Assembly (NCBI RefSeq): GCF_013122565.1
Contig: NZ_CP053258.1
Strand: one strand, 5' to 3'
DNA from: Escherichia coli
Lineage (GTDB): Bacteria; Pseudomonadota; Gammaproteobacteria; Enterobacterales; Enterobacteriaceae
DNA length: 64,000 bases
This document shows positions 22,818-37,127 of the stretch, piece after piece. The notes under the pieces were generated by a model. That model worked only from the letters and a program-made list of their open reading frames with translations, made no database searches and was not told where the DNA came from. How positions within the stretch are numbered: position 1 is the first letter of the stretch; every line of letters starts with the position of its first letter. Both the position numbers and the translations under genes were made by a program.

Positions 22818-22850
22818 TTATTTAATTGCAGACGATCGGTCAGTATCGTT

Positions 22851-22880
22851 GCCCGGATAAAGCGTTCACGCTGCATCCGG
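22851..22880. repeat. REP element
   Basis: GCCCGGATAAAGCGTTCACGCTGCATCCGG matches the REP consensus on the opposite strand. Confidence 0.7.
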
Positions 22881-22993
22881 TTAAAATGACACGCATTGCA
22901 GCGTGCTTTAATGGGTTTCTCACGATCGTACCGCTCTGCTCCTCGCTAAGTTGTTCTGTGAGTTATAGTTATAGAGAAATCACGGGTACGAAT

Positions 22994-23024
22994 GTTGAAC
23001 AGATGGCGACGCCATCTGTTCAAC
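22994..23024. promoter_or_regulatory. 31-nt perfect palindrome upstream of sapA (candidate operator or UTR hairpin)
   Basis: GTTGAACAGATGGCG-A-CGCCATCTGTTCAAC, 15-bp perfect arms, about 105 nt upstream of sapA ATG. Confidence 0.4.
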
Positions 23025-23128
23025 GACCAACCACACGGCCCTCATTACGACCCCTGAACACAAACGGTAATGGCAAATGTCATTAAATATTAGTAAGATA
23101 GCCTCTTTACATAAAATCCCTTAATATT

Positions 23129-24772
23129 ATGCGCCAGGTATTATCGTCTCTTTTGGTGATTGCTGGACTTGTGAGTGGTCAGGCAATCGCCGCGCCTGAA
23201 TCCCCCCCGCATGCTGATATCCGCGACAGCGGTTTTGTCTATTGCGTCAGCGGGCAAGTCAACACCTTTAACCCATCCAAAGCGAGCAGTGGGTTAATTG
23301 TCGATACCCTTGCCGCCCAGTTTTATGATCGACTGCTGGATGTCGATCCCTATACCTATCGCCTGATGCCGGAACTTGCCGAAAGCTGGGAAGTACTCGA
23401 CAACGGCGCGACCTATCGCTTCCACCTGCGTCGCGATGTTCCGTTTCAAAAAACCGACTGGTTTACTCCCACTCGTAAAATGAATGCCGACGATGTGGTG
23501 TTTTCCTTCCAGCGAATTTTTGACCGCAACAACCCGTGGCATAACGTCAACGGCAGCAACTTCCCCTACTTCGACAGCCTGCAATTTGCCGATAACGTGA
23601 AAAGCGTCCGTAAACTGGATAATCATACCGTTGAGTTCCGTCTGGCTCAGCCGGATGCTTCTTTTTTGTGGCACCTCGCAACCCATTATGCTTCGGTCAT
23701 GTCGGCAGAATATGCCCGGAAGTTAGAGAAAGAAGATCGCCAGGAGCAACTCGACCGTCAACCGGTCGGCACTGGACCGTATCAGTTGTCGGAATACCGC
23801 GCCGGGCAATTTATTCGCCTACAACGTCATGATGACTTCTGGCGCGGTAAACCGTTAATGCCGCAGGTGGTGGTGGATTTAGGCTCCGGCGGCACCGGAC
23901 GTCTGTCGAAACTCCTGACCGGGGAATGCGACGTTCTGGCCTGGCCTGCTGCCAGCCAGCTATCCATTTTGCGTGACGACCCGCGCTTGCGTTTAACGCT
24001 GCGTCCTGGGATGAACGTCGCCTATCTGGCATTTAACACCGCCAAACCGCCGCTAAATAATCCCGCTGTCCGCCATGCGCTGGCACTGGCGATTAATAAC
24101 CAGCGCCTGATGCAATCCATCTATTATGGTACGGCTGAAACGGCGGCCTCTATTTTACCGCGCGCCTCGTGGGCCTATGACAACGAGGCTAAAATTACTG
24201 AATACAATCCGGCGAAATCGCGCGAACAGTTGAAGGCGTTGGGGCTGGAAAACTTAACGCTGAAACTGTGGGTGCCAACACGTTCGCAGGCGTGGAACCC
24301 CAGTCCACTGAAAACCGCCGAACTGATTCAGGCGGATATGGCGCAGGTTGGCGTAAAAGTGGTGATTGTGCCGGTAGAAGGTCGCTTTCAGGAGGCGCGG
24401 TTGATGGATATGAGCCATGATCTGACGTTATCCGGTTGGGCGACGGACAGTAACGACCCGGACAGTTTCTTCCGTCCGTTACTGAGCTGCGCAGCAATTC
24501 ATTCACAGACCAACCTCGCCCACTGGTGCGATCCGAAATTCGACAGCGTATTGCGTAAGGCGCTCTCCTCGCAGCAACTGGCGGCGCGCATTGAAGCCTA
24601 TGACGAAGCGCAGAGTATTCTGGCGCAGGAATTGCCCATTTTGCCGCTGGCGTCGTCATTGCGTTTGCAGGCCTATCGGTACGATATCAAAGGTCTGGTA
24701 CTTAGCCCGTTTGGTAACGCCTCCTTTGCTGGGGTGTATCGCGAGAAACAGGATGAGGTGAAAAAACCATGA
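23129..24772 (+). CDS. sapA: periplasmic peptide-binding protein of Sap ABC transporter
   Basis: 547-aa ORF with signal peptide, family-5 SBP. Confidence 0.95.
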
Positions 24773-25734
24773 TTATCTTCACCTTACGCCGCATTTTGTT
24801 ATTGATTGTCACCTTGTTCCTGCTGACCTTCGTTGGCTTCAGCTTGAGCTATTTCACTCCACACGCGCCGTTACAAGGCGCGTCACTGTGGAATGCCTGG
24901 GTGTTCTGGTTTAACGGTCTGATCCACTGGGATTTTGGTGTTTCCAGTATTAACGGTCAACCGATTGCCGAACAGTTAAAAGAGGTCTTCCCGGCGACGA
25001 TGGAACTGTGCATACTCGCCTTCGGTTTTGCGCTGATTGTTGGCATCCCCGTAGGGATGATTGCCGGGATTACGCGCCATAAGTGGCAGGATAACTTGAT
25101 CAACGCCATCGCCTTACTGGGTTTTTCCATCCCGGTGTTCTGGCTGGCGCTTCTGTTGACGCTGTTTTGTTCACTCACGCTAGGTTGGTTGCCCGTTTCA
25201 GGGCGTTTCGATCTGCTCTACGAAGTGAAACCGATTACCGGTTTTGCGTTGATTGATGCCTGGCTTTCGGACTCACCATGGCGGGATGAAATGGTCATGA
25301 GCGCAATCCGCCATATGATATTGCCCGTGATCACCCTGTCGGTTGCGCCAACAACTGAAGTGATCCGCCTGATGCGTATCAGCACTATCGAAGTGTATGA
25401 CCAGAACTATGTTAAAGCGGCGGCGACCCGCGGTTTGTCACGCTTTACTATTTTGCGTCGCCATGTTCTGCATAACGCGTTACCTCCGGTTATTCCTCGC
25501 CTGGGCTTACAGTTTTCTACCATGCTGACGCTGGCGATGATCACCGAAATGGTTTTTAGCTGGCCGGGTTTAGGGCGCTGGTTAATTAACGCCATCCGCC
25601 AGCAGGATTACGCAGCCATTTCCGCCGGAGTGATGGTGTGTGGCTCACTGGTTATTATTGTTAACGTGATTTCTGATATTTTGGGTGCCATGGCTAACCC
25701 TCTGAAACATAAGGAATGGTATGCCTTACGATAG
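24769..25734 (+). CDS. sapB: Sap ABC transporter permease
   Basis: 321-aa ORF, DppB/OppB-like. Confidence 0.95.
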
Positions 25735-26611
25735 CGTATACAGCGAAAAGCGCCCGCCGGGCACGCTGCGTACCGCCTGGCGCAAATTTTATAGTGACGC
25801 CTCTGCGATGGTCGGTCTGTACGGCTGCGCGGGGCTGGCTGTACTGTGTATTTTTGGCGGCTGGTTTGCGCCTTACGGCATCGACCAGCAATTTCTCGGT
25901 TACCAATTATTGCCGCCGTCATGGTCGCGCTATGGCGAAGTTTCTTTCTTTCTGGGGACTGACGACCTCGGACGCGATGTTTTAAGCCGTTTACTGAGCG
26001 GAGCTGCGCCAACCGTGGGTGGCGCATTTGTGGTGACGCTTGCCGCGACGATCTGTGGCCTGGTACTGGGCACCTTCGCCGGGGCAACGCACGGCCTACG
26101 ATCAGCAGTGCTTAACCATATTCTGGATACCTTACTGGCGCTCCCTTCCCTGCTGTTGGCAATTATCGTTGTAGCGTTTGCCGGACCGAGTTTGTCCCAC
26201 GCCATGTTTGCTGTCTGGCTGGCATTGCTGCCGCGTATGGTACGTTCGATTTACAGCATGGTGCATGACGAACTGGAAAAAGAGTACGTTATCGCCGCCC
26301 GTCTGGATGGCGCATCAACGCTGAATATTCTCTGGTTTGCTGTGATGCCAAACATCACCGCCGGGCTGGTCACCGAGATCACCCGCGCACTGTCGATGGC
26401 AATTCTCGATATCGCCGCGCTGGGCTTTCTCGATCTCGGCGCACAACTCCCCTCGCCTGAATGGGGAGCGATGCTCGGTGATGCGCTGGAACTGATTTAT
26501 GTCGCCCCGTGGACTGTCATGCTGCCAGGTGCGGCAATTATGATTAGCGTGCTGTTGGTTAACCTCCTTGGCGACGGTGTCCGTCGTGCAATTATTGCGG
26601 GGGTGGAATAA
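25721..26611 (+). CDS. sapC: Sap ABC transporter permease
   Basis: 296-aa ORF, DppC/OppC-like. Confidence 0.95.
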
Positions 26612-27603
26612 TGCCATTACTCGATATTCGTAACCTGACCATTGAATTTAAAACCGGGGATGAGTGGGTTAAGGCAGTTGACCGCGTAAGCATGACCTTA
26701 ACCGAAGGTGAAATCCGCGGTCTTGTTGGCGAATCCGGCTCCGGCAAAAGTTTGATTGCGAAAGCGATTTGTGGGGTGAATAAAGATAACTGGCGTGTTA
26801 CTGCTGACCGTATGCGTTTTGATGATATCGATTTGCTGCGTCTCTCCGCACGCGAACGACGCAAGCTGGTTGGTCACAACGTGTCGATGATTTTCCAGGA
26901 ACCGCAGTCGTGTCTTGATCCTTCAGAACGAGTGGGTCGCCAGTTGATGCAAAACATCCCAGCCTGGACCTATAAAGGCCGTTGGTGGCAGCGTTTTGGC
27001 TGGCGCAAACGCCGTGCCATTGAACTGCTGCACCGCGTGGGGATTAAAGATCACAAAGATGCGATGCGCAGTTTTCCCTATGAGTTGACCGAAGGTGAAT
27101 GTCAGAAAGTGATGATAGCCATTGCACTGGCGAATCAACCGCGTCTGCTGATTGCTGACGAACCGACCAACTCAATGGAGCCAACAACCCAGGCGCAAAT
27201 CTTTCGCCTGCTGACGCGTCTCAACCAAAACAGCAATACCACTATTTTGCTTATCAGCCATGACTTACAAATGCTTAGCCAATGGGCGGATAAAATTAAC
27301 GTGCTTTACTGCGGTCAAACGGTGGAAACCGCGCCGAGTAAGGAGTTGGTGACGATGCCACATCATCCTTATACCCAGGCGCTGATCCGCGCGATACCAG
27401 ACTTCGGCAGCGCGATGCCGCATAAAAGTCGCCTCAATACGTTGCCCGGCGCTATCCCACTGCTGGAACAGTTACCGATTGGTTGTCGTCTGGGGCCACG
27501 TTGCCCGTATGCACAACGAGAATGCATTGTGACGCCACGTTTGACGGGGGCGAAAAATCATCTCTATGCCTGTCATTTCCCGCTGAACATGGAGAAAGAG
27601 TGA
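26611..27603 (+). CDS. sapD: Sap ABC transporter ATPase
   Basis: 330-aa ORF; Walker A GESGSGKS. Confidence 0.95.
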
Positions 27604-27604
27604 G

Positions 27605-28411
27605 ATGATCGAAACGTTGCTTGAAGTGCGTAATTTAAGTAAAACGTTCCGCTACCGGACCGGCTGGTTTCGTCGTCAAACCGTAGAAGCGGTAAAACCC
27701 TTGAGCTTTACGCTACGTGAAGGCCAGACACTGGCGATTATCGGCGAGAATGGTTCGGGTAAATCGACGCTGGCAAAAATGCTGGCGGGAATGATAGAAC
27801 CTACCAGCGGCGAGTTATTGATTGACGATCATCCGCTGCATTTTGGCGATTATTCCTTCCGTAGTCAGCGTATTCGCATGATTTTTCAGGATCCTTCGAC
27901 CTCGTTGAATCCCCGTCAACGTATCTCGCAAATCCTGGATTTTCCACTGCGTCTGAACACCGACCTGGAACCGGAACAGCGTCGTAAACAGATTATTGAA
28001 ACGATGCGTATGGTTGGGCTGCTACCGGATCACGTCAGTTACTATCCGCATATGTTGGCCCCCGGGCAAAAACAGCGTCTGGGTCTGGCGCGCGCGCTGA
28101 TATTGCGCCCAAAAGTCATTATTGCCGATGAAGCCCTCGCCTCACTGGATATGTCGATGCGTTCGCAGTTGATTAATCTGATGCTGGAGTTACAGGAAAA
28201 ACAGGGCATTTCGTATATTTATGTTACCCAGCATATCGGAATGATGAAGCACATTAGCGACCAGGTGCTGGTGATGCATCAGGGCGAGGTTGTCGAGCGA
28301 GGCAGCACCGCGGATGTGCTGGCATCACCGCTGCATGAACTCACCAAACGGCTGATTGCCGGGCATTTTGGCGAAGCATTAACAGCGGATGCGTGGCGTA
28401 AAGATCGCTAA
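27605..28411 (+). CDS. sapF: Sap ABC transporter ATPase
   Basis: 268-aa ORF; Walker A GENGSGKST. Confidence 0.95.
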   Translation: MIETLLEVRNLSKTFRYRTGWFRRQTVEAVKPLSFTLREGQTLAIIGENGSGKSTLAKMLAGMIEPTSGELLIDDHPLHFGDYSFRSQRIRMIFQDPSTSLNPRQRISQILDFPLRLNTDLEPEQRRKQIIETMRMVGLLPDHVSYYPHMLAPGQKQRLGLARALILRPKVIIADEALASLDMSMRSQLINLMLELQEKQGISYIYVTQHIGMMKHISDQVLVMHQGEVVERGSTADVLASPLHELTKRLIAGHFGEALTADAWRKDR

Positions 28412-28438
28412 TTTTCTGAATCCTCCTTCCAGATTATC

Positions 28439-28481
28439 CACCTCATTCTGACAAGAGATTAAATCTTGTCAGAATGAGGTG
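28439..28481. other. perfect 18-bp inverted repeat / stem-loop at sapF-ycjD junction
   Basis: CACCTCATTCTGACAAGA-gattaaa-TCTTGTCAGAATGAGGTG; right arm abuts the ycjD start codon; no U-tract. Confidence 0.6.
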
Positions 28482-28832
28482 ATGGATAAAATAAAATCAA
28501 ATGCGCGTGATTTAAGACGCAATCTCACTTTACAGGAACGAAAGCTCTGGCGATATCTTCGCAGCCGACGTTTTGGTGATTTCAAATTTCGCCGTCAACA
28601 TCCGGTGGGGAGCTACATTCTCGATTTTGCTTGCTGCTCGGCGCGTGTAGTCGTTGAGCTGGATGGTGGGCAGCATGATTTGGCAGTTGCCTATGATTCC
28701 AGGCGCACTAGCTGGCTTGAGTCGCAGGGCTGGACCGTGCTGCGTTTCTGGAATAACGAGATTGATTGTAATGAGGAGACGGTGCTGGAGATTATTCTGC
28801 AGGAACTGAACCGCCGGTCACCCTCACCCTGA
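28479..28832 (+). CDS. ycjD: DUF559 protein (Vsr/restriction-endonuclease-like fold)
   Basis: 117-aa ORF MMDKIKSNARDLRRNLT; start may be GTG at 28479 or ATG at 28482. Confidence 0.85.
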   Translation: MMDKIKSNARDLRRNLTLQERKLWRYLRSRRFGDFKFRRQHPVGSYILDFACCSARVVVELDGGQHDLAVAYDSRRTSWLESQGWTVLRFWNNEIDCNEETVLEIILQELNRRSPSP

Positions 28833-29060
28833 AAGGGCGAGGGGGCCGACCGAGCCGAATAGCTGTTGTGGTGAAAACATGGAGACAGTGCTGGAGAATA
28901 TTCGGCAAGGTCTGAACCATCCCAGCCATCGCCATAAAAGGGTTAGGGGCTGTATGAGCCTGTTTGTTGCTGGGGTAACAATATTTGCACAATACGGTCC
29001 CCTCGCCCCTCTGGGGAGAGGGTTAGGGTGAGGGGAAAAGCGCCCACCCTGCCGCAGCCT
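28833..29060. repeat. degenerate copy of ycjD 3' end plus GC-rich imperfect palindromic repeats (box-C-like)
   Basis: GGAGACAGTGCTGGAGAATATTCGGCAAGGTCTGAACC about 80 percent identical to ycjD's last codons; motif copies AGGGCGAGGGG, AGGGTTAGGGG and CCCCTCGCCCCTCTGGGGAGAGGGTTAGGGTGAGGGG. Confidence 0.5.
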
Positions 29061-29199
29061 GCTCCGGTCGGACCTGGCAACTATAGCTACTCACAGCCAG
29101 GTTGATTATAATAACCGTTTATCTGTTCGTACTGTTTACTAAAACGACGAATCGCCTGATTTTCAGGCACAACAAGCATCAACAATAAGGATTAAAGCT

Positions 29200-29988
29200 A
29201 TGGGTTTTCTTTCCGGTAAGCGCATTCTGGTAACCGGTGTTGCCAGCAAACTGTCCATCGCCTACGGTATCGCTCAGGCGATGCACCGCGAAGGAGCTGA
29301 ACTGGCATTCACCTACCAGAACGACAAACTGAAAGGCCGCGTAGAAGAATTTGCCGCTCAATTGGGTTCTGACATCGTTCTGCAGTGCGATGTTGCCGAA
29401 GATGCCAGCATCGACACCATGTTCGCTGAACTGGGGAAAGTTTGGCCGAAGTTTGACGGTTTCGTACACTCTATTGGTTTTGCACCTGGCGATCAGCTGG
29501 ATGGTGACTATGTTAACGCCGTTACTCGTGAAGGCTTCAAAATTGCCCACGACATCAGCTCCTACAGCTTCGTTGCAATGGCAAAAGCTTGCCGCTCCAT
29601 GCTGAATCCGGGTTCTGCCCTGCTGACCCTTTCCTACCTTGGCGCTGAGCGCGCTATCCCGAACTACAACGTTATGGGTCTGGCAAAAGCGTCTCTGGAA
29701 GCGAACGTGCGCTATATGGCGAACGCGATGGGTCCGGAAGGTGTGCGTGTTAACGCCATCTCTGCTGGTCCGATCCGTACTCTGGCGGCCTCCGGTATCA
29801 AAGACTTCCGCAAAATGCTGGCTCATTGCGAAGCCGTTACCCCGATTCGCCGTACCGTTACTATTGAAGATGTGGGTAACTCTGCGGCATTCCTGTGCTC
29901 CGATCTATCTGCCGGTATCTCCGGTGAAGTGGTCCACGTGGACGGCGGTTTCAGCATTGCTGCAATGAACGAACTCGAGCTGAAATAA
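29200..29988 (+). CDS. fabI: enoyl-ACP reductase (NADH)
   Basis: 262-aa [31 protein letters not shown]. Confidence 0.97.
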
Positions 29989-30007
29989 TCGTTCTGTTGG
30001 TAAAGAT

Positions 30008-30040
30008 GGGCGGCGTTCTGCCGCCCGTTATCTCTGTTAT
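30008..30040 (+). terminator. probable fabI terminator
   Basis: GGGCGGC-gttct-GCCGCCC followed by a T-rich tract. Confidence 0.5.
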
Positions 30041-30131
30041 ACCTTTCTGATATTTGTTATCGCCGATCCGTCTTTCTCCCCTTCCCGCCTTGCGTCAGGA
30101 TAACGATTTCCTTTACGACCAAGGAGCGCCC

Positions 30132-31259
30132 ATGGAACAACGCCACATCACCGGCAAAAGCCACTGGTATCATGAAACGCAATCCAGTACTACGGAGTAT
30201 GACGTTCTGCCTCTGGTCCCGGAAGCCGCAAAGGTCAGCGATCCCTTTCTACTCGACGTGATCCTTGAAAAAGAAACGCTGGCCCCCTTCCTTTCATGGC
30301 TGGACCCTGCGCGTGTTCTTGCAGTGGATTTGTTCCCTGACCAGCTTACCGTGACCCGTTCACAGACCTTCACCGCTTATGAACGCTTGTCGACGGCCCT
30401 GACGGTTGCTCAGGTTTGCGGCGTCCAGCGGTTATGTAACTACTATTCGGCGCGACTTACGCCGCTCCCCGGGCCTGATTCCACCAGGGAAAGTAATCAT
30501 CGGTTGGCACAAATCACGCAATATGCCCGCCAACTGGCTAGCTCGCCTTCTATTATCGACAACCGATCGCGCCAGCATCTGAATGACGTCGGTCTTACTG
30601 CCTGGGACTGTGTGATCATTAACCAAATCATTGGTTTTATTGGCTTTCAGGCGCGGACAATTGCGACATTTCAGGCTTATCTCGGGCATCCGGTACGCTG
30701 GTTACCCGGGCTGGAGATACAAAACTACGCCGACGCGTCACTGTTTGCTGATGAATCATTACGCTGGCGAAGCAGCTATGAGGTGGAAAAACTACCTGAA
30801 GAGCACACAAAAAGTTCAACTGCAGAACTTTGCCAACTGGCCGAAATACTCTCTCTCCACCCTATTTCACTTTCCCTTCTCGAAAAGTTATTAAACAGCA
30901 CACGGGTCAATACACAGCCGGATAATCAGCTTGCGGCGTTGTTATGCGCGCGTATAAATGGCAGTCCTGCTTGTTTTGCCGCCTGTATGGATTCATCAAA
31001 TGAATATAAAAAAATCAGCCCCCTTCTGCGCAAGGGCGAAAATGAAATTAACCGATGGGCTGACCGTCATTCTGTTGAGCGCGCTACCGTTCAGGCGATA
31101 CAATGGCTGACCCGAGCACCCGATCGCTTTAGCGCCGCCCAGTTCAGCCCTTTACTCGAACACGAAAAATCATCAACGCAGATTATTAATCTGCTGGTAT
31201 GGAGCGGGCTGTGTGGCTGGATAAATCGCTTAAAAATCGCGTTGGGTGAGACATATTAA
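30132..31259 (+). CDS. yciW: putative oxidoreductase of the cysteine regulon
   Basis: Track ORF trimmed to [12 protein letters not shown] (375 aa); AGGAG SD upstream. Confidence 0.85.
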
Positions 31260-31326
31260 CCTTGCCGCGTCAGACAGATTCGCGTAAAACTGTCAGCCGC
31301 TCTAATGGCCACCAAAATAGACAATT

Positions 31327-33261
31327 ATGTTTCAGGACAACCCGCTGCTAGCGCAGCTTAAACAGCAACTGCATTCCCAGACGCCACGCGCTGAAGGGGT
31401 GGTAAAAGCCACAGAAAAAGGCTTTGGCTTCCTGGAAGTCGACGCGCAAAAAAGTTATTTCATTCCGCCGCCGCAGATGAAAAAAGTCATGCATGGCGAC
31501 CGAATTATCGCGGTGATCCACAGTGAAAAAGAACGTGAATCCGCAGAGCCAGAAGAACTGGTTGAACCGTTCCTGACTCGTTTCGTGGGTAAAGTTCAGG
31601 GCAAAAATGACCGTCTGGCCATCGTTCCTGATCATCCACTCTTAAAAGACGCCATTCCTTGCCGCGCAGCCCGTGGCCTGAACCACGAGTTTAAAGAAGG
31701 GGACTGGGCGGTTGCCGAAATGCGCCGTCATCCGCTGAAAGGCGATCGTTCTTTCTATGCTGAACTGACACAATACATCACTTTTGGTGACGACCACTTT
31801 GTACCGTGGTGGGTTACACTTGCGCGCCATAATCTGGAAAAAGAAGCACCAGACGGTGTCGCTACCGAAATGCTCGATGAAGGTCTGGTTCGTGAAGATC
31901 TGACCGCGCTGGATTTTGTCACCATCGACAGTGCCAGCACGGAAGATATGGATGACGCCCTTTTCGCTAAGGCGTTGCCGGATGACAAACTTCAGCTGAT
32001 TGTGGCGATTGCTGATCCAACCGCGTGGATTGCTGAAGGTAGCAAGCTGGACAAAGCCGCGAAAATTCGCGCATTCACCAACTATCTGCCTGGCTTCAAC
32101 ATCCCTATGCTGCCTCGCGAGCTTTCTGACGATCTCTGCTCACTGCGCGCCAATGAAGTCCGCCCGGTACTGGCATGCCGCATGACACTCTCCGCTGATG
32201 GCACCATTGAAGATAATATCGAATTCTTTGCCGCCACCATCGAATCCAAAGCGAAGCTGGTGTATGACCAGGTTTCTGACTGGCTGGAAAATACCGGTGA
32301 CTGGCAGCCTGAAAGTGAAGCAATTGCCGAACAAGTCCGTTTGTTAGCGCAAATTTGCCAACGCCGCGGCGAGTGGCGTCATAACCACGCACTGGTGTTT
32401 AAAGATCGCCCGGATTACCGCTTTATTCTCGGTGAAAAAGGTGAAGTGCTGGATATCGTCGCCGAGCCTCGTCGCATTGCCAACCGTATCGTCGAAGAAG
32501 CGATGATTGCCGCTAATATTTGTGCGGCCCGCGTACTGCGCGATAAGCTCGGTTTTGGCATCTATAACGTGCATATGGGCTTTGATCCGGCGAATGCCGA
32601 CGCGCTGGCAGCGTTGCTGAAAACGCACGGTCTGCATGTCGATGCCGAAGAAGTGCTTACGCTGGACGGTTTCTGTAAGCTGCGTCGTGAACTGGATGCG
32701 CAACCAACTGGTTTCCTCGACAGCCGCATTCGTCGCTTCCAGTCATTTGCTGAAATTAGCACTGAACCCGGTCCTCACTTTGGCCTCGGTCTGGAAGCAT
32801 ACGCCACCTGGACTTCGCCGATCCGTAAATATGGCGACATGATCAACCACCGTCTGCTGAAAGCGATTATCAAAGGCGAAACTGCGACGCGTCCACAGGA
32901 TGAAATCACTGTCCAAATGGCCGAGCGTCGCCGTCTCAATCGGATGGCAGAACGTGATGTTGGTGACTGGTTATACGCACGCTTCCTGAAAGACAAAGCC
33001 GGGACCGACACCCGTTTCGCGGCGGAAATTGTCGATATCAGCCGTGGCGGCATGCGTGTTCGTTTGGTTGATAACGGCGCTATCGCCTTTATTCCTGCAC
33101 CTTTCTTACACGCTGTGCGCGATGAAATGGTTTGCAGCCAGGAAAACGGCACCGTACAAATTAAAGGTGAAACGGTTTATAAAGTAACTGACGTTATTGA
33201 CGTCACCATTGCCGAAGTCCGCATGGAAACCCGCAGCATTATTGCGCGCCCGGTCGCGTAA
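31327..33261 (+). CDS. rnb: exoribonuclease II
   Basis: 644-aa [18 protein letters not shown]; RNB catalytic domain and C-terminal S1 domain. Confidence 0.97.
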
Positions 33262-33270
33262 TCTCCTTTC

Positions 33271-33304
33271 ACGGCCCATTCCTTATGAATGGGCCGTTTA
33301 TTTC
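33271..33304 (+). terminator. rho-independent terminator of rnb
   Basis: GGCCCATTC-cttatg-AATGGGCC followed by GTTTATTT. Confidence 0.8.
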
Positions 33305-33494
33305 CCCGCTCTACCTTCATCATGTCCCGGCAGTTTTTTAACTGACTTTCGTTTGAAAACTGGCGTTTTTCCAAAACTGGATTACAAATAAATATATAAA
33401 AAAACAATGCGTTTAGCCGCCGTTAATTTCATGTAAGTCATGTTGTTCCTTTTATTTAACCGCGGACTCCGCTGTTAACCGGAGGATATGCATC

Positions 33495-35480
33495 ATGAAA
33501 ACCGTTAGGGAGTCCACAACGTTGTACAACTTTCTCGGATCGCACAATTCATACTGGCGGTTGACGGAAAGCAGCGATGTTTTGCGCTTTTCTACCACCG
33601 AAACCACAGAACCTGAACGTATGTTGCAGTTATCTGCCGAACAGGCTGCTCGCATCAGGGAAATGACGGTCATCACCTCCAGCCTGATGATGAGTCTGAC
33701 CGTCGATGAAAGCGATCTTTCTGTGCATCTGGTAGGACGAAAAATCAATAAACGGGAATGGGCTGGCAACGCGTCTGCATGGCATGACACACCGGCGGTT
33801 GCTCGTGATTTATCACACGGGCTTTCCTTTGCTGAGCAGGTAGTTTCTGAAGCACATTCCGCAATAGTCATTCTCGACAGCCGGGGGAATATTCAACGCT
33901 TCAATCGGTTATGTGAAGATTACACAGGGTTGAAAGAACACGACGTCATTGGGCAAAGCGTGTTTAAACTGTTTATGAGCCGTCGTGAAGCTGCGGCATC
34001 CAGGCGCAATAACCGTGTATTTTTTCGAAGCGGCAATGCATATGAAGTCGAACTGTGGATACCAACACGTAAAGGCCAGCGGCTGTTTCTGTTTCGCAAT
34101 AAATTTGTCCACAGCGGCAGTGGCAAAAACGAGATTTTTTTAATCTGTTCAGGCACCGATATTACCGAAGAGCGCCGCGCTCAGGAGCGACTGCGTATTC
34201 TGGCAAATACCGACAGTATCACCGGACTGCCGAATCGTAACGCAATGCAGGAGTTAATCGATCACGCCATTAATCAGGCAGATAACAATAAAGTTGGGGT
34301 TGTGTATCTTGATTTGGATAATTTTAAAAAGGTCAATGACGCCTATGGGCATTTGTTTGGTGACCAGCTATTACGCGACGTGTCATTGGCTATTTTAAGC
34401 TGTCTCGAACATGACCAGGTGTTGGCGCGTCCAGGTGGCGATGAGTTTCTGGTACTCGCATCCAATACCTCACAAAGCGCGCTGGAAGCAATGGCATCAC
34501 GAATTTTGACTCGCTTACGGCTCCCCTTTCGTATTGGTTTAATTGAAGTTTATACCAGCTGTTCAGTAGGTATTTCGCTCTCTCCCGAACATGGTTCGGA
34601 CAGCGCGACTATTATTCGTCACGCCGACACAGCAATGTACACAGCGAAGGAAGGCGGACGAGGACAATTTTGCGTTTTTACTCCAGAAATGAATCAGCGG
34701 GTATTTGAATATCTCTGGCTGGATACCAACTTGCGTAAAGCACTGGAAAACGATCAGTTGGTTATTCACTATCAACCGAAAATCACCTGGCGTGGCGAAG
34801 TGCGCAGTCTGGAAGCACTAGTACGTTGGCAGTCACCTGAACGTGGGTTGATTCCACCGTTGGACTTCATTTCCTACGCCGAAGAGTCAGGGCTAATTGT
34901 GCCTTTAGGCCGTTGGGTGATTCTCGATGTCGTACGCCAGGTGGCAAAGTGGCGGGATAAAGGTATTAACCTGCGAGTGGCGGTAAATATTTCTGCACGT
35001 CAGCTCGCCGATCAAACCATTTTCACCGCCCTGAAACAGGTTCTTCAGGAACTCAATTTTGAATACTGCCCTATCGATGTTGAACTGACAGAGAGTTGTC
35101 TGATTGAGAATGATGAACTGGCACTGTCTGTTATTCAACAATTTAGCCAACTAGGTGCGCAAGTGCATCTGGACGATTTTGGTACCGGCTACTCTTCACT
35201 TTCGCAACTGGCGCGCTTTCCGATCGATGCCATCAAACTTGACCAGGTTTTTGTTCGAGATATTCACAAACAGCCTGTCTCGCAGTCACTGGTCCGGGCG
35301 ATCGTCGCTGTGGCCCAGGCATTGAATCTTCAGGTGATCGCCGAAGGTGTAGAGAGTGCAAAGGAAGATGCTTTTTTAACCAAGAACGGGATCAATGAGC
35401 GGCAAGGATTTTTGTTTGCCAAACCGATGCCCGCCGTCGCCTTCGAACGCTGGTATAAACGCTATCTGAAGCGCGCATAA
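33495..35480 (+). CDS. pdeR: c-di-GMP phosphodiesterase, PAS-GGDEF-EAL
   Basis: 661-aa ORF with degenerate GGDEF (PGGDEF) and EAL (EALVRW) motifs. Confidence 0.95.
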   Translation: MKTVRESTTLYNFLGSHNSYWRLTESSDVLRFSTTETTEPERMLQLSAEQAARIREMTVITSSLMMSLTVDESDLSVHLVGRKINKREWAGNASAWHDTPAVARDLSHGLSFAEQVVSEAHSAIVILDSRGNIQRFNRLCEDYTGLKEHDVIGQSVFKLFMSRREAAASRRNNRVFFRSGNAYEVELWIPTRKGQRLFLFRNKFVHSGSGKNEIFLICSGTDITEERRAQERLRILANTDSITGLPNRNAMQELIDHAINQADNNKVGVVYLDLDNFKKVNDAYGHLFGDQLLRDVSLAILSCLEHDQVLARPGGDEFLVLASNTSQSALEAMASRILTRLRLPFRIGLIEVYTSCSVGISLSPEHGSDSATIIRHADTAMYTAKEGGRGQFCVFTPEMNQRVFEYLWLDTNLRKALENDQLVIHYQPKITWRGEVRSLEALVRWQSPERGLIPPLDFISYAEESGLIVPLGRWVILDVVRQVAKWRDKGINLRVAVNISARQLADQTIFTALKQVLQELNFEYCPIDVELTESCLIENDELALSVIQQFSQLGAQVHLDDFGTGYSSLSQLARFPIDAIKLDQVFVRDIHKQPVSQSLVRAIVAVAQALNLQVIAEGVESAKEDAFLTKNGINERQGFLFAKPMPAVAFERWYKRYLKRA

Positions 35481-35626
35481 GTAGATGAATATATATACCT
35501 AGCGCTATATCCCGTCATTATATATCGTATTCCTGGATGATAATTAGCCGTTGCTGTTAAACACTTCTCTTTTAGCGGCAATTTTTGCATTATTCATTTT
35601 CCACTTTTGCTATAAGGATGTCCTTG

Positions 35627-35800
35627 ATGTCTGAATTTGATGCCCAGCGCGTTGCCGAACGTATTGATATTGTGTTAGATATCCTTGTGGCAGGCGATTA
35701 CCACTCTGCGATCCATAATCTCGAGATTCTTAAAGCAGAACTCTTGCGCCAGGTTGCTGAATCTACGCCAGACATCCCGAAGGCACCGTGGGAGATTTAA
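35627..35800 (+). CDS. yciZ: small protein, UPF0509 family
   Basis: 57-aa [30 protein letters not shown] after trimming track ORF to internal Met. Confidence 0.7.
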
Positions 35801-35890
35801 CAATCGTGCCTTCAGGTTTTCCTATTTGAGGATGCCCGGCGCGTCAGTATTTTTTTTATTTAGTATTATAACGTTATAAGAATTACAGCG

Positions 35891-36640
35891 ATGAATTCCC
35901 GACAACAAACTATTCTACAGATGGTCATTGACCAGGGTCAGGTTAGCGTAACCGATCTGGCAAAAGCCACTGGAGTTTCTGAAGTTACCATTCGCCAGGA
36001 TCTCAACACCCTCGAAAAACTGAATTACCTCCGCCGTGCACATGGTTTTGCAGTTTCGCTTGATAGTGATGACGTCGAAACCCGGATGATGAGCAACTAT
36101 ACGCTGAAGCGTGAACTCGCCGAGTTTGCCGCGTCACTGGTTCAACCGGGCGAAACCATCTTTATCGAAAATGGCAGCAGCAATGCCCTGCTCGCCCGGA
36201 CTCTTGGCGAACAGAAGAAAAATGTCACTATCATCACAGTCAGCAGCTACATTGCGCATTTGCTGAAAGACGCGCCTTGTGAAGTCATTTTGCTCGGTGG
36301 CGTGTACCAGAAAAAAAGCGAAAGTATGGTTGGCCCTTTGACACGCCAGTGCATCCAACAGGTGCATTTCAGCAAAGCATTTATTGGTATTGATGGCTGG
36401 CAACCTGAAACTGGATTTACCGGTCGCGATATGATGCGTACCGATGTGGTCAATGCCGTGCTGGAAAAAGAGTGCGAAGCGATAGTCCTGACTGACAGCT
36501 CGAAATTTGGTGCTGTACATTCATACTCCATCGGCCCCGTTGAGCGATTCAATCGCGTGATTACCGATTCGAAAATACGCGCCAGCGATTTGATGCATCT
36601 TGAGCACAGTAAACTCACCGTTCACGTCGTTGACATTTAA
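35891..36640 (+). CDS. yciT: DeoR-family transcriptional regulator
   Basis: 249-aa ORF; N-terminal HTH, C-terminal sugar-phosphate-binding domain. Confidence 0.9.
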
Positions 36641-36908
36641 CCATTTCCCTTCTCTACGGATGATTTGCAGTTTGGCAAATCATCCGCTCTAAGATGATTC
36701 CTGGTTGATAATTAAGACTATTTACCTGTCATTAACATTCTCAAGATATAAAATTATTATCAGCGATATAACAGGAAGTCATTATCACCTGCGTGATATA
36801 ACCCTGCGCGCGAGCGGATTTCACGGAATAATTTCACCAGGCTTATTCTTAGCTATTATAGTTATAGAGAGCTTACTTCTGTGAATCATAAATTCAGGAG
36901 AGAGTATT

Positions 36909-37127
36909 ATGTTTGTAACGAGCAAAAAAATGACCGCGGCTGTTCTGGCAATTACCCTGGCAATGTCTCTGAGTGCCTGTTCTAACTGGTCTAAACGGGA
37001 TCGTAACACCGCAATCGGCGCTGGTGCAGGGGCATTAGGCGGTGCAGTACTGACCGATGGCAGTACGTTGGGTACATTAGGTGGTGCAGCTGTCGGTGGT
37101 GTTATTGGTCACCAGGTCGGTAAATAA
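36909..37127 (+). CDS. osmB: osmotically inducible lipoprotein B
   Basis: 72-aa ORF; lipobox LSAC; glycine-zipper repeats. Confidence 0.95.
   Translation: MFVTSKKMTAAVLAITLAMSLSACSNWSKRDRNTAIGAGAGALGGAVLTDGSTLGTLGGAAVGGVIGHQVGK

Follow-up and report, generated by a model that had tools for sequence, protein, structure and literature searches.

A 15-base sequence shared by the sapA and osmB upstream regions of Escherichia coli is very probably the core of two independent σS-type promoters

Results

An identical A/T-rich sequence of 15 bases precedes both sapA and osmB in the E. coli puuP-ymjA-sapABCDF...osmB region, which was analysed here as one stretch of 64,000 nucleotides (the window). 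Each copy very probably forms the core of a separate σS (RpoS)/σ70-type promoter, with the identity between the two reflecting convergence on the promoter consensus plus some contribution of chance. Public data establish transcription start positions, σS occupancy and rpoS dependence at both loci. Both promoters are already catalogued, and their shared motif is ordinary; the sapA promoter is known already, but in supplementary tables only.

The shared motif and its expected frequency

When the whole window was searched, TTATAGTTATAGAGA was found exactly twice, both times on the plus strand, at 22963–22977 and 36856–36870, i.e. about 14 kb apart; a third copy was not found in the window even when two mismatches were allowed. 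The initial annotation had described a 15-nt AT-rich motif common to the sapA upstream and osmB promoter regions, and the match is indeed exact at both places. The sapA copy ends 16 nt before a palindrome (22994–23024) and 151 nt before the sapA ATG at 23129, and the osmB copy ends 38 nt before the osmB ATG at 36909, close to the distances of about 17 nt to the palindrome and about 40 nt to osmB given earlier. The identity stops at both ends of the 15-mer (left neighbours g and a, right neighbours a and g, in the sapA and osmB copy, respectively). Beyond it, the upstream flanks are identical at 16 of 60 positions and the downstream flanks at 21 of 60, and local or gapped alignment of the two loci scores within the range of shuffled sequences.

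As a class, 15-nt matches are not exceptional across the window, where maximal exact repeats of 15 nt or more number 11 in direct and 7 in inverted orientation (with about 2.2 direct ones in dinucleotide shuffles). The caution of the initial annotation, that a few 15-mer matches are expected by chance and that this one is weak evidence alone, was fair. This exact word has 0.02 matches in shuffles. In the approximately 8.6 kb of intergenic DNA of the window, no direct match other than TTATAGTTATAGAGA reaches 15 nt (0.05 expected, P ~0.05); among intergenic DNA the match is thus somewhat unlikely, and there may be a functional reason for its 3' half. A scan of contigs from multiple taxa, in which the matches listed did not extend to E. 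coli, yielded at least 120 loci carrying the 15-mer, and nearly all among the matches listed came from unrelated A/T-rich taxa, as chance predicts. The two enteric matches among those listed, in Enterobacter sp. Bisph1 and Kosakonia cowanii, have surroundings of a third kind, unrelated to either locus, and immediately precede a gene on the minus strand.

The sapA promoter

At sapA, the main transcription start (G) falls on 22976 on the plus strand, i.e. on motif position 14 (Cho et al. 2014, Additional file 6, PMC3923258), which answers the question of sapA start mapping that the initial annotation had raised. This start, 1355287 in U00096.2, has 659 reads, is used in stationary phase, in glutamine medium and under heat shock, not in exponential phase, and is the only one assigned to the sapA unit in that study; the sequence upstream of it ends in GTGAGTTATAGTTATAGAG, and the mapping of its coordinate to the window was checked. 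The motif copy at 22963–22977 thereby covers −13 to +2 of what appears as the distal sapABCDF promoter, and TATAGT at 22964–22969 has the position of the −10 hexamer (−12 to −7). A minor start (C) lies at 22981, and Kim 2012 gives a sapA start at 1355282, supported by 2 reads and leaving a 5' UTR of 148 nt. The main start yields a 5' UTR of 153 nt (22976–23128), whose RNA fold (MFE −41.3 kcal/mol, z = −3.2) includes a perfect hairpin with a 14-bp stem at 22994–23024. In the start table of Mendoza-Vargas 2009 only a primer is entered for sapA, and the Cappable-seq tables hold no coordinates matching these starts.

The σS ChIP-chip region SigS_312 (1355115–1355414) spans the sapA start, and the promoter, being also assigned to σ70, is recorded as a σD/σS promoter (Cho 2014, PMC3923258). 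In stationary phase, sapA log2 expression was 9.99, 9.28 and 9.96 in the wild type versus 7.37, 7.47 and 7.31 in the ΔrpoS mutant, and sapB fell from ~10.7 to ~6.7; these decreases for sapA to sapD, as well as that for osmB, were all flagged as significant and at least 2-fold (Cho 2014 Table S7, PMC3923258). This rpoS dependence of sap comes from one microarray set and could be an indirect effect. A consensus scan detected no σ70-type −35/−10 pair at the sapA motif, as would suit a promoter that relies chiefly on its −10 box. Rfam gave a sub-threshold REP/naRNA4 match upstream of the motif and nothing at the motif itself, the REP-like match extending over 22851–22917 and thus not including it.

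The osmB promoter

The osmB copy (36856–36870, plus strand) is the core of osmBp2, the σS-dependent promoter of osmB, and differs from it in nothing, as both the −10 hexamer and the listed start are inside of the 15-mer. The start (A) at 36868, which precedes the osmB ATG by 41 nt, has been validated experimentally at 1341393 in U00096.2 (PMC4447067), corresponding to 1343369 in U00096.3, where K-12 has the identical 15-mer with its first base at 1343381. With this mapping checked, the motif covers −12 to +3. A consensus scan returned TTCACC-18-TATAGT, and the initial annotation's question of whether the motif overlaps the osmB −10 region has a positive answer, since a start at motif position 13 makes TATAGT at 36857–36862 the −10 box.

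The promoter osmBp2 goes back to Jung et al. 1990 and Boulanger et al. 2005 (cited in PMC3141248). Region SigS_308 (1341200–1341474), in which σS alone was found by ChIP-chip, spans this promoter, osmB is also a ChIP-seq peak (PMC4447067), and in stationary phase osmB log2 expression was ~15.0 in the wild type versus ~9.5 in the ΔrpoS mutant (Cho 2014 Table S7, PMC3923258). A rare C-to-T change distinguishes the window at 36880, in the osmB 5' UTR shortly past the motif; only 1 of 5,426 genomes shares it.

Relation to the σS promoter class

Weber in 2005 and Typas in 2007 reportedly defined a class of σS promoters that combine an extended −10 element of consensus (K)CTATACTTAA with a discriminator rich in A/T. 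Such a class has also been described by Maciag 2011 (PMC3141248) and Peano 2015 (PMC4447067). Both copies resemble it in having a hexamer close to TATACT/TATAAT at the right distance from the mapped start (−12 to −7 at sapA, −11 to −6 at osmB), as well as T at −6 and a very A/T-rich discriminator (TATAGA at sapA, with one G/C in six, and TATAG at osmB), the latter two being reported traits of σS-preferred promoters (PMC3141248; PMC4447067). The listed osmB start thus places the hexamer at −11 to −6 instead of −12 to −7; it is absent from the Cho 2014 start table (PMC3923258), which means that the sapA and osmB starts come from different experiments and that each could be one base off. The likeness extends to a weak or missing −35 element, to in vivo occupancy of both starts by the σS holoenzyme as seen in published ChIP-chip regions, and to rpoS-dependent expression raised in stationary phase, be it directly or indirectly (Cho 2014 Table S7; sapA start in conditions S, G and H, not in E). 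Unlike the class consensus, however, both E. coli copies have T rather than C at −13 (22963 and 36856) and TATAGT rather than TATACT, and the sapA promoter is assigned to σ70 as well; C at −13 is frequent but not obligatory in the class (PMC4447067). The suggestion of the initial annotation that the shared TATAGT element could mark similar promoter architecture has therefore held up, with a start inside the motif, a σS ChIP region and a fall in the ΔrpoS mutant at both loci.

This core recurs in unchanged register at other starts of the Cho 2014 table, namely those of ynfB-speG (GTATAGTTATAGGG), tomB (CTTATAGTTAAGCTA) and TSS 367672 (CTATAGTTAAAACA). The ynfB-speG start and TSS 367672 are stationary-phase-specific there, whereas the tomB start is seen in exponential phase too; the dps and yaiA starts in this table bear CTATACTTAA.

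Conservation

In osmB orthologues only the hexamer and adjoining bases are kept (CTATAGTTATAGTGA, CTATAGTCAAAGAGA, CTATACTTAACGTGT and CTATACTTAAAGAGA), and the 3' half of the 15-mer is not. The hexamer appears as CTATAGT or CTATACT in Salmonella, Citrobacter, Enterobacter and Kosakonia, all four genera having C at −13. The sapA copy is located in the ymjA-sapA spacer, which is missing in Salmonella, Citrobacter and Kosakonia because sapA directly follows pspF there. The osmB −10 element is ancestral across genera, and the spacer in front of sapA is found in the E. coli lineage only. Within the species, a variant of the sapA site with one base changed at motif position 12 (TTATAGTTATAAAGA) occurs in 1,044 of 5,422 E. 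coli genomes (~19%), strain SE15 being a carrier of it, and one strain has an expansion by an extra hexamer at this copy.

Discussion

How could two unrelated loci come to carry the same 15 bases at the same place relative to transcription? TATAGT (motif positions 2–7) is probably the hexamer actually used at both, i.e. the −10 element that would be recognized and melted by region 2 of the σ factor, and the following TATAG(A) would serve as a discriminator rich in A/T, a type favouring RNA polymerase with σS. Transcription begins at a purine 6–7 nt past the hexamer, A at motif position 13 for osmB and G at position 14 for sapA. Such a sequence acts as a core promoter anywhere in accessible intergenic DNA, and the two starts are therefore in register. 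The osmB copy is the known stationary-phase and osmotic promoter osmBp2, and the sapA copy is the main promoter of sapABCDF(-ycjD), dependent on rpoS and used under stationary-phase, glutamine and heat-shock conditions. The first 9–10 shared bases are probably accounted for by both promoters being near the σS extended −10 consensus (C/T)TATA(C/G)TTA(A/T); the other 5–6 are most likely shared by chance. By a rough estimate, about 2–30 promoter pairs identical over −13 to +2 would occur genome-wide, in which case chance would suffice. We infer that convergence plus chance, and neither common ancestry nor a dedicated regulator of both loci, lies behind the identity; what the data support is a similar core promoter and nothing beyond it.

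That both copies derive from one sequence, as a small promoter cassette duplicated or transferred between the loci, might be suggested by an exact match of 15 bases with strand and role in common, within 14 kb, but seems extremely unlikely. Flanks at a random level of identity (16/60 and 21/60), with no gapped alignment above shuffles, led us to reject a duplication or homology of the two loci, and an ancestral osmB −10 element does not go together with a sapA spacer that is specific to the E. coli lineage. Fifteen bases are also too short for homologous recombination. A dispersed repeat or duplicated segment (REP, an IS or MITE end, or a segmental duplication) was likewise discarded, as the flanks are dissimilar and the REP-like match excludes the motif. 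Scarcely more probable is pure coincidence, with the sapA copy being inert spacer and sapA being transcribed from elsewhere, e.g. from ATGACA-15-TTTAAT at 22886–22912. This element is given by Shimada 2014 as a constitutive σ70 promoter in the ymjA-sapA spacer, predicted by SELEX (PMC3946193), and the failure of the consensus scan to find a σ70-type promoter at the sapA motif is in line with such a view. The sole start of the sapA unit in Cho 2014, with its 659 reads, is inside the motif, however, and the predicted promoter sits within the REP-like element with no Cho 2014 start nearby, for which reasons we rejected it as the main sapA promoter.

An operator is a somewhat better candidate, though still an improbable one: the 15-mer, or the tandem TTATAG-TTATAG within it, could be the operator of a specific regulator acting on both osmB and the sap operon, with the full identity under selection. 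This would suit the finding that no other intergenic repeat in the window reaches 15 nt, with 0.05 expected, as well as the response of both osmB and the sap genes to stationary phase and rpoS, the increase of SapC and SapF proteins after a water-activity downshift in O157 (PMC3940904) and the presence of TATAGTTATAG at a third promoter, that of the likewise polyamine-linked ynfB-speG. Yet the site is not conserved as a whole, either in orthologous promoters, where osmB loses the 3' half, or within the species, where ~19% of E. coli genomes have another base at position 12 of the sapA copy and one strain has the extra hexamer there. A regulator with such a site was not found in the literature searched, and the σ-factor explanation already covers the mapped starts. 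To our knowledge, none of the motifs of RcsB, PuuR, CRP, IHF and PhoP fits the 15-mer. It is also very unlikely that selection acts on TATAGAGA, the discriminator and start sequence, e.g. for a particular response to ppGpp/DksA, Crl or supercoiling or for the binding of a putative factor, and that a small σS sub-class in Escherichia is thereby defined. If it were, this sub-class would tie osmB, with its part in envelope and osmotic protection, to the handling of polyamines (the putrescine exporter sapBCDF, and ynfB-speG with TATAGTTATAG), and selection on the 3' half would bear on discriminator tuning of σS promoters; the present evidence does not call for it.

With convergence and chance as the preferred explanation, the import of the match is small beyond annotation, namely that the E. 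coli sap operon, annotated in K-12 as a putrescine exporter, is confirmed to be driven mainly by a stationary-phase, rpoS-dependent promoter. The DNA in which this promoter lies, 153 nt ahead of sapA, is specific to the lineage, and in the searchable literature we found no discussion of this point, of the link between RpoS and sap or of the identity with osmBp2. The pair also illustrates cleanly, in a natural setting, how unrelated promoters can arrive at the same 15-base core.

Two identical cores at the sapA and osmB promoters

The 15-mer TTATAGTTATAGAGA, a TTATAG hexamer in tandem followed by AGA, has two exact copies in the window, at 22963-22977 and 36856-36870, both on the + strand, and no third copy is found there even with up to two mismatches permitted. 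The match is exactly 15 nt long, with neighbouring bases unlike on both sides, and an identical 15-mer is present at both loci in K-12 MG1655; the motif that the initial annotation saw as shared by the sapA upstream region and the osmB promoter region is thus real. The gene order of the window is puuP-ymjA-sapABCDF-ycjD-fabI-yciW-rnb-pdeR-yciT-osmB, in the orientation opposite to K-12. Copy 1, between the end of ymjA (22817) and the sapA ATG (23129), ends 16 nt before a 31-bp palindrome (22994-23024) and 151 nt before sapA, and copy 2 ends 38 nt before osmB (ATG at 36909).

The osmB copy belongs to a known promoter. The experimentally validated osmB start 1341393 (U00096.2, minus strand) lies within a σS ChIP-seq peak (Peano et al. 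2015, PMC4447067) and, with the ATG at 1341352 in U00096.2 (1343328 in U00096.3), is therefore located 41 nt 5' of the osmB ATG, at window position 36868, an A at motif position 13. This start makes TATAGT at 36857-36862 (+ strand) the -10 hexamer of osmBp2, i.e. the σS-dependent one of two osmB promoters (Maciag et al. 2011, PMC3141248, citing Boulanger et al. 2005), and the motif does overlap the known -10 region. A consensus scan picks TTCACC-18-TATAGT at this site. At osmB, the ChIP-chip table of Cho et al. 2014 (PMC3923258) has only σS (SigS_308, 1341200-1341474) alongside RNA polymerase; the osmBp2 start is absent from the TSS table of that study. Of 5,422 E. coli genomes, 4,771 have an exact match to the osmB copy as it stands in K-12.

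The sapA copy is the distal sapABCDF promoter, the same as that of TU_Ecoli-1475 (Cho et al. 2014). A sapA start at 1355287 (minus strand, 659 reads; Cho et al. 2014, PMC3923258, Additional file 6) was seen in stationary phase, in glutamine medium and upon heat shock, not in exponential phase; the 51-nt sequence upstream of it ends ...GTGAGTTATAGTTATAGAG, and it is covered by the σS region SigS_312 (1355115-1355414; Additional file 3). In exponential-phase data the only start here has 2 reads and lies 5 nt downstream, at 1355282, giving a 5'UTR of 148 nt (Kim et al. 2012, PMC3415461). With the sapA ATG at 1355134, start 1355287 corresponds to window position 22976, a G at motif position 14, and TATAGT (22964-22969, + strand) occupies exactly -12 to -7, so the mapped start falls inside the motif here as well. 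A consensus scan finds no σ70-type -35/-10 pair at the sapA motif; the lack of such a pair is usual among σS promoters.

In stationary phase, log2 expression of sapA was 9.99, 9.28 and 9.96 in the wild type versus 7.37, 7.47 and 7.31 in the ΔrpoS strain, with ~10.7 versus ~6.7 for sapB and ~15.0 versus ~9.5 for osmB (Cho et al. 2014, Additional file 8, PMC3923258). All these differences are marked as significant and at least two-fold, with the rpoS dependence of sap coming from a single microarray data set and being potentially indirect.

Promoter class and origin of the identity

With a start inside the motif, σS occupancy and rpoS dependence at both loci, the cautious proposal of a similar promoter architecture is supported. 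The osmB copy and osmBp2 are the same promoter, and both copies resemble the σS class in hexamer position, discriminator, weak -35 region, σS occupancy, rpoS dependence and growth-phase use, but differ from it at -13, where they are without the frequent, though not obligatory, C. Each copy is a core promoter, with TATAGT as its probable -10 element and the TATAG(A) that follows as an extremely A/T-rich discriminator; such a discriminator together with T at -6 is typical of promoters preferred by the σS holoenzyme (Maciag et al. 2011, PMC3141248; Peano et al. 2015, PMC4447067). Transcription starts at a purine 6-7 nt past the hexamer. Identical cores would be expected to give the same choice of start, so that the in-register starts, which were taken from separate experiments, would not be a second coincidence.

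Taken as a bare repeat, the 15-mer is not beyond chance. Maximal exact repeats of 15 nt or longer number 11 direct and 7 inverted in the window, the majority G/C-rich and within coding sequence, compared with ~2.2 direct ones in dinucleotide-preserving shuffles. In the ~8.6 kb of intergenic DNA, no other direct match reaches 15 nt (0.05 expected, P ~0.05), which is only mildly unusual, considering how many things the initial annotation could have noticed. Duplication can be rejected as the origin of the two copies, because their flanks are unrelated (16/60 identities upstream, 21/60 downstream) and gapped local alignment gives a top score inside the shuffle range. Nor do the copies behave as a dispersed repeat or a conserved operator.

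Comparison across genera argues against selection on the full 15-mer. Its osmB counterpart reads CTATAGTTATAGTGA in Salmonella, CTATAGTCAAAGAGA in Citrobacter, CTATACTTAACGTGT in Enterobacter and CTATACTTAAAGAGA in Kosakonia, with conservation limited to CTATA(G/C)T and the next few bases, i.e. a classical σS extended -10. The motif-bearing ymjA-sapA spacer (window 22818-23128) is absent in Citrobacter, Kosakonia and Salmonella (comparison loci L124 2215-2368, L126 2241-2338 and L127 2244-2354), where the short pspF-sapA spacer is without such a motif, so the DNA that holds the distal sapA promoter is specific to the E. coli lineage. In 4,327 of 5,422 E. coli genomes, the 45 nt around the sapA copy match the window exactly; another 1,044, e.g. 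SE15 (L128), have TTATAGTTATAAAGA, in which A replaces G at motif position 12. One strain, YP3 (L129, NZ_CP072687.1 2672095-2672225), has three tandem TTATAG units at sapA, which suggests replication slippage. Among the entries drawn from Cho et al. 2014 (PMC3923258), the same core recurs in the same register at the starts of ynfB-speG (GTATAGTTATAGGG), tomB (CTTATAGTTAAGCTA) and 367672 (CTATAGTTAAAACA), the first and last being stationary-specific and that of tomB also seen in exponential phase, and dps and yaiA have CTATACTTAA in its TSS table. Given this partial conservation and recurrence, ~9-10 of the 15 bases are therefore a recurrent functional consensus, and the final 5-6 need just a modest coincidence.

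Overall, the feature is an ordinary one: the cores of two stationary-phase promoters, both catalogued before, happen to share the same 15 bases. Our literature search returned no paper that deals with the promoter of sap, its dependence on rpoS or its identity to osmBp2; the facts themselves stand in public tables.

Further observations at the two loci

In E. coli, a ymjA-puu block is inserted between pspF and sapA, which directly follows pspF in Citrobacter, Kosakonia and Salmonella; an alignment between the genera looks feasible only for the final ~50-100 nt ahead of sapA. A few plasmids match the final ~70 nt (spacer query positions 240-311) at ~89% identity, e.g. H40 (NZ_AP040230.1 134214-134285), which suggests that they carry copies of the start of a sap-like operon. 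Genomic SELEX suggests an alternative sapA promoter, ATGACA-15-TTTAAT at 22886-22912 (PMC3946193), which we rejected as the main promoter: it is without a mapped start in the Cho et al. 2014 table and lies inside a REP-like element of the ymjA-sapA spacer (22851-22917; sub-threshold Rfam naRNA4, 35.4 bits, E = 2e-4).

The sapA transcript has a 153-nt leader, predicted to open with a strong hairpin derived from the palindrome at +19 to +49, the main feature of the predicted fold. This palindrome is perfect in the window (14+3+14), has two changes in K-12, both in the right arm, and in SE15 is changed in both arms, with one further change just 3' of them.

The ynfB-speG promoter reads TATAGTTATAG, in the same register (L132 698-708; K-12 NC_000913.3 1655697-1655707), and its start 1653733 (U00096.2) is listed as weak (12 reads) and seen only in stationary phase and glutamine medium. 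Polyamines are a common theme of speG, the sap operon and the neighbouring puu genes. Among the matches listed, the 15-mer also occurs in Enterobacter sp. Bisph1 (L010 2235-2249) and Kosakonia cowanii (L067 2928-2942), at spots orthologous to each other and unrelated to sapA or osmB, where it adjoins a hairpin and precedes the start of a minus-strand gene by ~20 nt.

Around osmBp2 lies a 9-bp inverted repeat, TTCACGGAA (36820-36828) and TTCCGTGAA (36877-36885), which may serve as a binding site for a protein or form a stem in the longer RNA that begins at the upstream osmB promoter. Both arms are kept in Salmonella, Citrobacter, Enterobacter and Kosakonia; the right arm in the window is TTCTGTGAA, with T in place of C at 36880, and only 1 of 5,426 E. 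coli genomes has an exact match to the 45-mer with this T. In the DNA between the two osmB promoters, 36770-36797 is near-invariant in five genera (AGCGATATAACAGGAAGT..TATCACCTGCGTGAT) and includes the palindrome ATCACCTGCGTGAT at 36784-36797. In E. coli OkiPb01684 (L131, NZ_AP042519.1 1893892-1894045), an IS1 directly upstream of the osmB -10 region has taken the place of all DNA 5' of the promoter core; the motif here reads TTATAAGTTATAGAGA, with one additional A.
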